Shown: one piece after another, positions 2,239-3,864 of the stretch | How positions within the stretch are numbered: position 1 is the first letter of the stretch | Layout: each line of letters begins with the position of its first letter | Made by a program: the position numbers and the translations under genes | The notes under the pieces: model-generated | What the model saw: only the letters and a program-made list of their open reading frames with translations | Told to the model about the DNA's origin: nothing | Database searches by the model: none | From: a virus | Taxonomy: Duplodnaviria > Heunggongvirae > Uroviricota > Caudoviricetes | Strand: one strand, 5' to 3' | DNA: 4,890 bases | Virus record (IMG/VR): IMGVR_UViG_2606217107_000013

Positions 2239-3864
2239 ATGCCCTATATCGATATCACCACGATGCGTGGGATGATGCCGCGCGTTGTGACATCCATGCT
2301 GCCCGAGCATTCCGCTGTACTGGCGGAGGACTGCCATTTCCGGTTTGGTGTTATTACACCAGAACGTCAGATATCCGGGGTTGAGAAAACATTCACAATT
2401 AAGCCAAAAACAATTTTTCATTACCGTGACGATTTCTGGTTTGCATGGCCGGATGTGGTGGATGTGATCCGCAGTCCGATCGCTCAGGACCCCCACGGGC
2501 GTATTTACTACACTGACGGGCGTTTTCCTAAAGTGACGGATGCGACCATTGCCACAAAAGGGGGCGGGAATCACCCGACATCATCGTATCGTCTGGGGAT
2601 CCCCGCGCCGACGACAGCTCCTGTCTGTACTGTTCAGCAGGGCGGTGATGTTTCTGACGATAACCCGAATGATGATGAAACCCGGTTTTATACGGAAACC
2701 TTTGTCTCAGATTATGGTGAAGAAGGTCCGCCAGGTCCGGCGTCTCTGGAGGTAACACTCCGTACTCCGGGAACTGCGGTACAACTGACGCTGGCTCCGG
2801 TGCCATTGCAGAATGCCAGTATTAAACGTCGTCGTATTTATCGTTCTGCCTCAGGGGGAGGAGAAGCCGATTTTTTACTCGTGGCTGAACTGGATGCATC
2901 CGTGCTCAGTTACACGGATAAAATACCGGCGAAAAACCTTGGACCTTCGCTGGCGACATGGGATTACCTGCCGCCGCCAGAGAATATGACAGGCCTTTGC
3001 CTGATGGCTAACGGTATTGCCGCCGGGTTTGCCGGTAATGAAGTGATGTTTTCGGAAGCGTATCTGCCGTATGCATGGCCGGAAGTGAATCGTCACACGA
3101 CGGCAGAAGATATTGTAGCTATCTGTCCGCTCGGAACGTCACTGGTGGTGGCGACAAAGGGTGAGCCTTATCTGTTCAGTGGTGTATCGCCTTCCACAAT
3201 TTCCGGCTCCAGAATTCCTTCAATGCAGGCGTGTCTGAGCAGGCGGAGTATGGTCGCGATGGAGGGCTTTGTGCTGTATGCAGGAACAAATGGCCTGGTG
3301 TCTGTTGATGCAAACGGTAATGCCGCTCTGGCGACGGAGCAGATTATTTCGCCGGAACAGTGGCAGAGTCAGTTTAATCCGGCCTCCATTGTGGCTTATC
3401 CCTGGCGTGGTGAATACATTGCCTGTTACACGAAACCGGATGGTAAGCAGGATGTGTTTGTCTTCAACCCGGCAGGTATGGATATCCGCTACCTCAGTAC
3501 ACCTTTTGACTGCGCATGTGTTGACCTGGTTAACGATGTTATGCGGGTGGTATCAGGACAAAACATGTCTGCGATCGCCGGAGGGAGTTTGCCGTCGACA
3601 ATCAGATGGCATTCAAAGGTATTTTCCCTTCCGGAAAGAACCTCTTTCTCCTGTCTCAGGGTGAAGTCTCCGACGCCAGAGCGGGTGGGAATTACTGTGC
3701 TGGCAGATGATGTTCCGGTGATTCACCTTGCACCTGGAAGCTTTTCGGGAAGCGTTGTGAGATTACCTGCTGCAACCGGGCAAAACTGGCAGATACTGGT
3801 TTCCGGTTTTGGTCAGGTTGAACGTATTACACTCAGTACATCGATGTCGGAGCTGCCGGTATGA
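2239..3864 (+). CDS. Putative phage tail or tail-tip structural protein, family not recognised; translationally coupled to the downstream J-like fibre gene
   Basis: 541-aa ORF. Start chosen at ATG 2239 (MPYIDITTMRGMM...), which has AAAGGA at 2227-2232 six nt upstream; the ORF-track start at 2161 is a GTG with no Shine-Dalgarno and lies in the intergenic region. No signal peptide or transmembrane segment is evident. The composition is G/S/T/V/P-rich, typical of beta-rich virion proteins. The stop TGA (3862-3864) overlaps the next gene's ATG (3861-3863) as ATGA. The structural role is inferred from context only. Confidence 0.8.
   Translation: MPYIDITTMRGMMPRVVTSMLPEHSAVLAEDCHFRFGVITPERQISGVEKTFTIKPKTIFHYRDDFWFAWPDVVDVIRSPIAQDPHGRIYYTDGRFPKVTDATIATKGGGNHPTSSYRLGIPAPTTAPVCTVQQGGDVSDDNPNDDETRFYTETFVSDYGEEGPPGPASLEVTLRTPGTAVQLTLAPVPLQNASIKRRRIYRSASGGGEADFLLVAELDASVLSYTDKIPAKNLGPSLATWDYLPPPENMTGLCLMANGIAAGFAGNEVMFSEAYLPYAWPEVNRHTTAEDIVAICPLGTSLVVATKGEPYLFSGVSPSTISGSRIPSMQACLSRRSMVAMEGFVLYAGTNGLVSVDANGNAALATEQIISPEQWQSQFNPASIVAYPWRGEYIACYTKPDGKQDVFVFNPAGMDIRYLSTPFDCACVDLVNDVMRVVSGQNMSAIAGGSLPSTIRWHSKVFSLPERTSFSCLRVKSPTPERVGITVLADDVPVIHLAPGSFSGSVVRLPAATGQNWQILVSGFGQVERITLSTSMSELPV

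Follow-up and report, generated by a model that had tools for sequence, protein, structure and literature searches.

The 4,890-nt stretch of viral DNA considered here (hereafter the window) poses a simple question: what is the 541-residue protein encoded on its plus strand at positions 2239–3864, immediately upstream of a gene whose product resembles the distal part of the lambda host-specificity protein J? The initial annotation took it for a structural protein of unrecognised family, in the slot that the N-terminal part of J normally takes. Its coordinates and length are borne out by the sequence, where an uninterrupted plus-strand reading frame, 541 codons long from the ATG at 2239, ends with the stop at 3864. 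The overlap with the next gene is equally real: the stop codon TGA (3862–3864) overlaps the next ATG (3861–3863) in an ATGA motif, and the ribosome-binding site GGAG that serves this second gene can be read at 3849–3852 on the plus strand, inside the 3′-end of the first gene and 8 nt before the second ATG. The family and the slot, by contrast, have to be revised. Homology, fold, gene context and near-identity to a phi24B protein together make it almost certain that the 541-aa protein belongs to the ‘tubular tail protein B’ class and serves as the tail nozzle in a podovirus prophage of Sepvirinae/Traversvirus type, with the 933W/phi24B type of virion, and that it is orthologous to gp57 (vb_24B_39) of phi24B and to L0124 of 933W.

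The genomic setting is that of a short-tailed phage. Some 20 E. coli chromosomes match the window at 96–98% identity and phage GER2 at 97%, the GER2 counterpart of the 541-aa protein being 99.8% identical to it; from position 2025 on, the window is ~90% identical to 933W, VT2-Sakai and phi24B. Gene context was taken from an annotated, 97%-identical prophage of E. coli JNEC-KY204, in which lysis genes, terminase, portal, a major capsid protein of the N4-gp56 family and a phage adaptor protein are followed by a tail fibre protein, a DUF4376 protein, a protein with a YadA C-terminal domain and two small hypothetical proteins, and then by the 541-aa protein, a 422-aa ‘phage tail tip fiber protein’, two small proteins, Lom, further genes and a 2788-aa protein with an LPD5 domain. 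The order of the structural genes is kept in phi24B and 933W, where the nozzle and the needle (the next gene) correspond to vb_24B_39/vb_24B_40 and L0124/L0125, respectively. We conclude that the surrounding prophage is a 933W/phi24B-type short-tailed podovirus (Sepvirinae, Traversvirus) without a lambda-type tail.

This setting bears directly on the idea that the protein is an alternative tail-tip hub, standing, in a siphovirus-type tail, where lambda J has its N-terminal ~800 residues. The J-like distal domains encoded by the next gene and the translational coupling of the two genes speak for such a hub, but the annotated JNEC-KY204 prophage contains no tail tube, tape measure or gpL/gpK/gpI-type genes and no J-type hub, its capsid protein is of the N4-gp56 type, and the 90%-identical phages are Sepvirinae, that is, podoviruses. 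The gene lies instead in a short-tail module of portal, adaptor(s), fibre, needle and ejection protein that has neither tube nor tape measure. Immediately upstream, where the initial annotation had suggested looking for a hub, positions 1–2024 hold an Eib-like adhesin cassette and not tail genes. With no lambda-type tail module in the annotated prophage there is no slot of J for the protein to fill, and we hold the hub to be extremely improbable. What survives of the earlier reading is that this is a structural tail protein and that it positions a J-like fibre, the phi24B needle being anchored in the nozzle; its role as a replacement hub in a lambda-like siphovirus tail is what the podovirus context contradicts.

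At the level of sequence families, Pfam and NCBIfam scans of the 541-aa protein gave no match; J and Phage-tail_3 profiles were among those without a match, in agreement with the earlier remark that no J-type resemblance was visible, and this too counts against a J hub. RefSeq names the protein ‘hypothetical protein’. It belongs to phrog_511 (E=2.8e-271), a family labelled ‘internal virion protein’ whose profile has 862 positions, 318 of them upstream of the start of the 541-aa protein. The same label stands on many GenBank records, including those of homologues from Vibrio, Ralstonia and Burkholderia phages. The family is large, and the reading frame accordingly far beyond chance: in a search of representatives, 4482 clusters (50% identity) match at E≤1e-3 and 2268 at E≤1e-30, and homologues occur in 367 phage records, comprising Vibrio, Ralstonia, Burkholderia, Klebsiella, Erwinia, Agrobacterium and Pseudomonas phages. 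Many of these relatives, as seen among the representatives, are 600–1100 aa long, with an extra 100–500 residues (300–500 in some members) inserted after about residue 140. The protein that had seemed to lack a family is therefore a member of phrog_511 with a solved homologue (8JOV_A) and 95% identity to a characterised phi24B protein, and its assignment as a nozzle places it in a described class of tail proteins.

The phi24B protein is the most informative of these relatives. Over the full length, 536 of 567 residues (counted from the longer start discussed below) are identical to vb_24B_39 (ADN68462.1); the N-terminal 350 residues are almost invariant between the two, and 25 of the 31 substitutions fall within the C-terminal ~130 residues. 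The window prophage also has the neighbours of the nozzle, the overlap with the needle gene and the virion module in common with phi24B and 933W. In phi24B, gp57 has been identified by cryo-EM and proteomics as the hexameric tail nozzle, in a bioRxiv preprint of April 2026 (10.64898/2026.04.10.717836). In the phi24B tail described there, the portal (gp72) and each of two adaptor rings (gp64 and gp62) are dodecamers, the nozzle (gp57) is a hexamer and the needle (gp56) a trimer, and the lateral gp61 fibres number six. The nozzle comes after adaptor gp62, the needle trimer fills its lumen and is anchored by its N-terminal domain between the tip domains of the nozzle hexamer, and gp57 was not only detected in the proteomics but served there as the copy-number reference (10.64898/2026.04.10.717836).

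The gp numbers of the preprint run opposite to the GenBank gene order, and we tied them to the vb_24B genes by order, sizes and residues. By order and size, gp61 corresponds to tsps (645 aa), gp55 (75 aa) and gp54 (204 aa) follow the needle, and the giant protein is gp47; the needle residues Val167, Met260, Arg47 and Leu57 named in the preprint are V167, M260, R47 and L57 of vb_24B_40. Needle residues and gene order thus agree that gp56 is vb_24B_40 and that gp57, just upstream, is vb_24B_39. One detail of the preprint, a ‘gp57 loop Arg47-Leu57’ that it gives as the contact with the needle, could not be placed on the nozzle: neither start codon gives Arg and Leu at these positions, whereas needle gp56 has both R47 and L57. 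To judge from the residues, the loop probably belongs to the needle (22544–23809 in phi24B, 3861–4890 in the window), or else its numbering is mislabelled.

A solved homologue comes from Ralstonia phage GP4. Chain A of PDB entry 8JOV (577 aa, ‘Virion-associated phage protein’, present as six chains) matches residues 4–479 of the protein at E=6.5e-55 in a phmmer search, and matches the two family profiles, A1 and A2, at E=1.7e-71 and 5.6e-148, respectively. The same entry holds homologues of the prophage portal (12 chains, E=1.2e-63) and adaptor (12 chains, E=1.5e-25). We identified it through its Foldseek description, ‘Portal-tail complex of phage GP4’, and through these portal and adaptor chains, a literature search on ‘8JOV’ having returned nothing. 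The preprint gives 29% identity (E=2.9e-53) between phi24B gp57 and the GP4 nozzle (10.64898/2026.04.10.717836), and the 8JOV_A match reflects the same relationship. The likeness to GP4 has its bounds: the last ~60 residues of the protein do not align with the GP4 nozzle, and GP4 carries three kinds of tail fibre with folds unrelated to those of the phi24B fibres (10.64898/2026.04.10.717836). Cryo-EM has already located this tail component in phi24B (2026 preprint) and in GP4 (8JOV, released 2023), and the 541-aa protein, as its orthologue, is an ordinary virion component of an already known kind.

Structure prediction widens the circle of relatives. An AlphaFold2 model built on a diverse alignment of 88 sequences reached a pLDDT of 94.3 and a pTM of 0.89; a first model, from 34 sequences that were all at least 56% identical, had a pLDDT of 59.8 and was left out of the fold search. 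The best 20 Foldseek matches were all chains of solved phage tail complexes, P22 and T7 among them, and further structural matches included the crAss001 muzzle gp44, a Pa223 tail protein, the SU10 nozzle, cyanophage A4 tail tubular protein B, Sf6 gp8, HRP29 nozzle gp13 and the VP1 and Carin-1 nozzles. Generic WD40-type propellers are interleaved among these matches, but they cover only ~240 residues. The predicted model has the beta-propeller nozzle fold and superposes on solved nozzles; outside the propeller, residues ~123–230 are predicted to form a separate, Ig-like, all-beta segment made of strands only. The beta-propeller nozzle fold is common to the 541-aa protein and T7 gp12, P22 gp10, Sf6 gp8, the SU10 nozzle and the crAss001 muzzle gp44, at only 7–12% identity in the structural alignments, and the proteins differ in size (794 aa for T7 gp12) and in accessory domains. 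When T7 gp12 and P22 gp10 were sought by searching PDB sequences with profiles A1 and A2, only 8JOV was significant. Sequence, fold and context therefore all place the protein in the GP4/phi24B nozzle subfamily, whereas its place in the broad podophage nozzle (tubular tail B) class comes from the predicted fold only, the T7 and P22 nozzles not being found by sequence. The fold search, proposed earlier as a check on the tail-tip hub, points away from it, leading to podophage nozzles and not to siphovirus hubs; by neither profile nor fold does the protein match the N-terminal hub of lambda gpJ. Apart from this, the family profile showed, over residues ~123–223, a weak and non-significant likeness (E~0.05) to segments of the major capsid proteins in 9ROW and 5LII.

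These placements also bear on the phrog_511 label. Read literally, it would make the protein an internal (ejection or core) component, carried inside the head until its ejection into the host, and both the strength of the family match and the occurrence of the label among homologues from several phage groups favour this. Yet the solved homologue is a six-copy part of an external portal-tail complex, the fold is the beta-propeller nozzle of T7 gp12, P22, Sf6 and SU10, and in phi24B the 95%-identical gp57 lies outside, on the tail, while the ejection role is assigned to the 2811-aa gp47 (10.64898/2026.04.10.717836). A position in the capsid interior is contradicted by both the homologue and gp57, and we consider it very improbable; the label appears to be inherited annotation with no finding behind it. 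Relabelling the family ‘tail nozzle protein’ would correct the annotations of Stx-converting and related prophages, and would keep readers from taking the J-like needle gene for a truncated lambda J.

The start of the nozzle gene differs between records. The frame extends upstream by 26 codons to a GTG at 2161 (2161–2238, plus strand), from which a 567-aa form would be made, and this start is used in the old GenBank records of phi24B and 933W, while RefSeq annotates the 541-aa form. A Shine–Dalgarno-like AAGGA is read at 2228–2232 (plus strand), 6 nt before the ATG at 2239, whereas none precedes the GTG; in alignments, homologues belonging to other genera, and likewise the solved GP4 nozzle, begin at residue 1–4 of the 541-aa form. 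Because of the AAGGA, the alignment of homologues and the agreement of RefSeq, we accept the ATG at 2239 as the likely true start, and 2161–2238 is probably a noncoding 5′-leader.

What, then, is the gene that follows? Its 5′ 343 codons occupy 3861–4890 of the plus strand, where the translation runs off the window, and it encodes the central tail fibre, or needle, orthologous to phi24B gp56 (vb_24B_40, 422 aa) and 91% identical to it. Here the resemblance to J that was noticed earlier is genuine, with matches to PF09327 Phage_Tail_Tip (E=4.4e-11), to NF049904 lambda_TipJ (positions 778–963 of 1163), to phrog_31 ‘central tail fiber J’ (positions 966–1246 of 1565) and to PDB 9ze4_N, ‘J central straight fiber domain’ (E=6.3e-10); phrog_496 is matched as well. 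It is not true, however, that the gene begins directly at the FN3 portion: the J-like similarity starts at about residue 71–79, and ~70 residues of an N-terminal domain of its own precede it. The distal FN3, straight-fibre and beta-prism modules of lambda gpJ are shared by the needle only, not by the nozzle, and the N-terminal hub of gpJ is related to the 541-aa protein neither in sequence nor in fold. Traversvirus tail spikes have been described as resembling gpJ but without its C-terminal Ig-like domains (PMC12309495). The next gene thus encodes a trimeric podovirus needle with its own N-terminal anchor domain, and no part of J is missing from it; the supposed loss of an N-terminal region presumed a lambda-type tail module that the prophage does not have.

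From these relationships a working of the nozzle can be proposed, in which the hexamer, its position in the virion, the anchoring of the needle and the loss of the needle on ejection all come from the phi24B preprint and the GP4 entry. Six copies would form a beta-propeller-based ring below the second dodecameric adaptor ring, and this ring would be the distal end of the DNA channel; the six lateral fibres would be seated on nozzle and adaptor together. With its tip domains the nozzle would hold the ~70-residue N-terminal domain of the trimeric needle, which would plug the channel until, on meeting the cell surface, it detached, whereupon the giant LPD5 ejection protein and the DNA would leave through the nozzle as through a near-rigid conduit. 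In ejected phi24B particles the needle density is gone and the nozzle has hardly moved, and the authors propose that receptor engagement detaches the needle and thereby releases the ejection protein and DNA (10.64898/2026.04.10.717836). The T7 nozzle opens through a rotation of hairpins (PMC11784390), whereas that of phi24B is reported to change very little (10.64898/2026.04.10.717836). We infer by analogy that the copy in the window prophage is expressed and assembled as in phi24B. Its expression within the late operon is an assumption, because a ~2-kb moron cassette parts the nozzle gene from the upstream tail genes. The coupling of nozzle and needle translation fits with partners that assemble together, although their 6:3 stoichiometry is fixed by structure and not by the coupling.

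Might the nozzle also act at the cell surface, as a receptor-binding or enzymatic protein, for example through its beta-propeller or its Ig-like domain? Beta-propellers are frequent ligand binders, and the 300–500-residue insertions after about residue 140 in some relatives suggest a surface site that tolerates added functions; the T7 nozzle, moreover, contributes to adsorption (PMC11784390). The Pfam and NCBIfam scans, on the other hand, detected no catalytic or carbohydrate-binding family, the near-invariance of the N-terminal 350 residues relative to phi24B is unlike typical receptor-binding regions, and in phi24B receptor recognition is assigned to the needle and to small downstream proteins (10.64898/2026.04.10.717836). 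We therefore think a second role of this kind decidedly improbable, and read the protein as a nozzle in the ordinary sense. A further suggestion, speculative and on balance unlikely, is that the outward-facing site of the Ig-like insertion (after about residue 140) and the divergent C-terminal ~130 residues make up an exchangeable docking surface, which would co-vary with the N-terminal plug of the needle and set which needles or fibres Sepvirinae tails are able to carry. In that case the nozzle would encode some of the host-range modularity of Stx phages.

Divergence from phi24B and 933W is unevenly distributed along the DNA. Identity is 92–100% over 2175–3500 but 75–81% over 3525–4125, a block that comprises the 3′-end of the nozzle gene and the 5′-end of the needle gene, and 77–83% over 4275–4575. 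Protein identity nevertheless stays high (95% for the nozzle, 91% for the needle), and the DNA divergence is therefore mostly synonymous; in the first 90 residues of the needle, nine positions differ from phi24B. The pattern looks like a recombination patchwork under purifying selection. We also considered adaptive co-evolution of nozzle and needle in the 75–81% block and rejected it, since divergence that is mostly synonymous shows no more than mosaic ancestry.

Upstream of the nozzle, the window departs from the phi24B arrangement. Only from 2025 on does it resemble 933W, phi24B and most Stx phages, and positions 1–2024 are therefore read as an inserted moron cassette of ~2 kb, consisting of an Eib-like gene and a second ORF, which lies between the lateral-fibre genes and the nozzle and splits the tail cluster. 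The first gene (197–1318, plus strand) encodes a 373-aa protein of the trimeric-autotransporter type that carries a YadA anchor (PF03895, E=4.4e-16) as well as a signal peptide. The C-terminal ~140 residues of this protein are 60–74% identical to the immunoglobulin-binding EibE, EibD, EibC and EibA of ECOR-9 prophages, and its N-terminal passenger is only ~67% identical to the best phage match (GER2). The GC content is 36–37% over 1–750, a stretch that takes in the flank upstream of the gene and its 5′-half, compared with ~52% in the phage genes. Directly after the Eib-like gene lies a 186-aa ORF (1377–1937, plus strand; a 156-aa form in RefSeq), for which Pfam and NCBIfam gave no match and which matches only phrog_6585, a family of unknown function; its position suggests an adhesin regulator or accessory factor.

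Between this ORF and the nozzle, the strongest terminator-like site in the window lies on the minus strand at 2064–2082 (GGGGAGCATGTTGCTCCCC followed by seven T), ~160 nt upstream of the nozzle start and within the stretch conserved with 933W; no annotated minus-strand gene is present for it to terminate. Where the window has the Eib-like adhesin and putative regulator cassette directly upstream of the nozzle, phi24B and 933W have a 282-bp ORF, which is annotated as shared with phage P-EibD.
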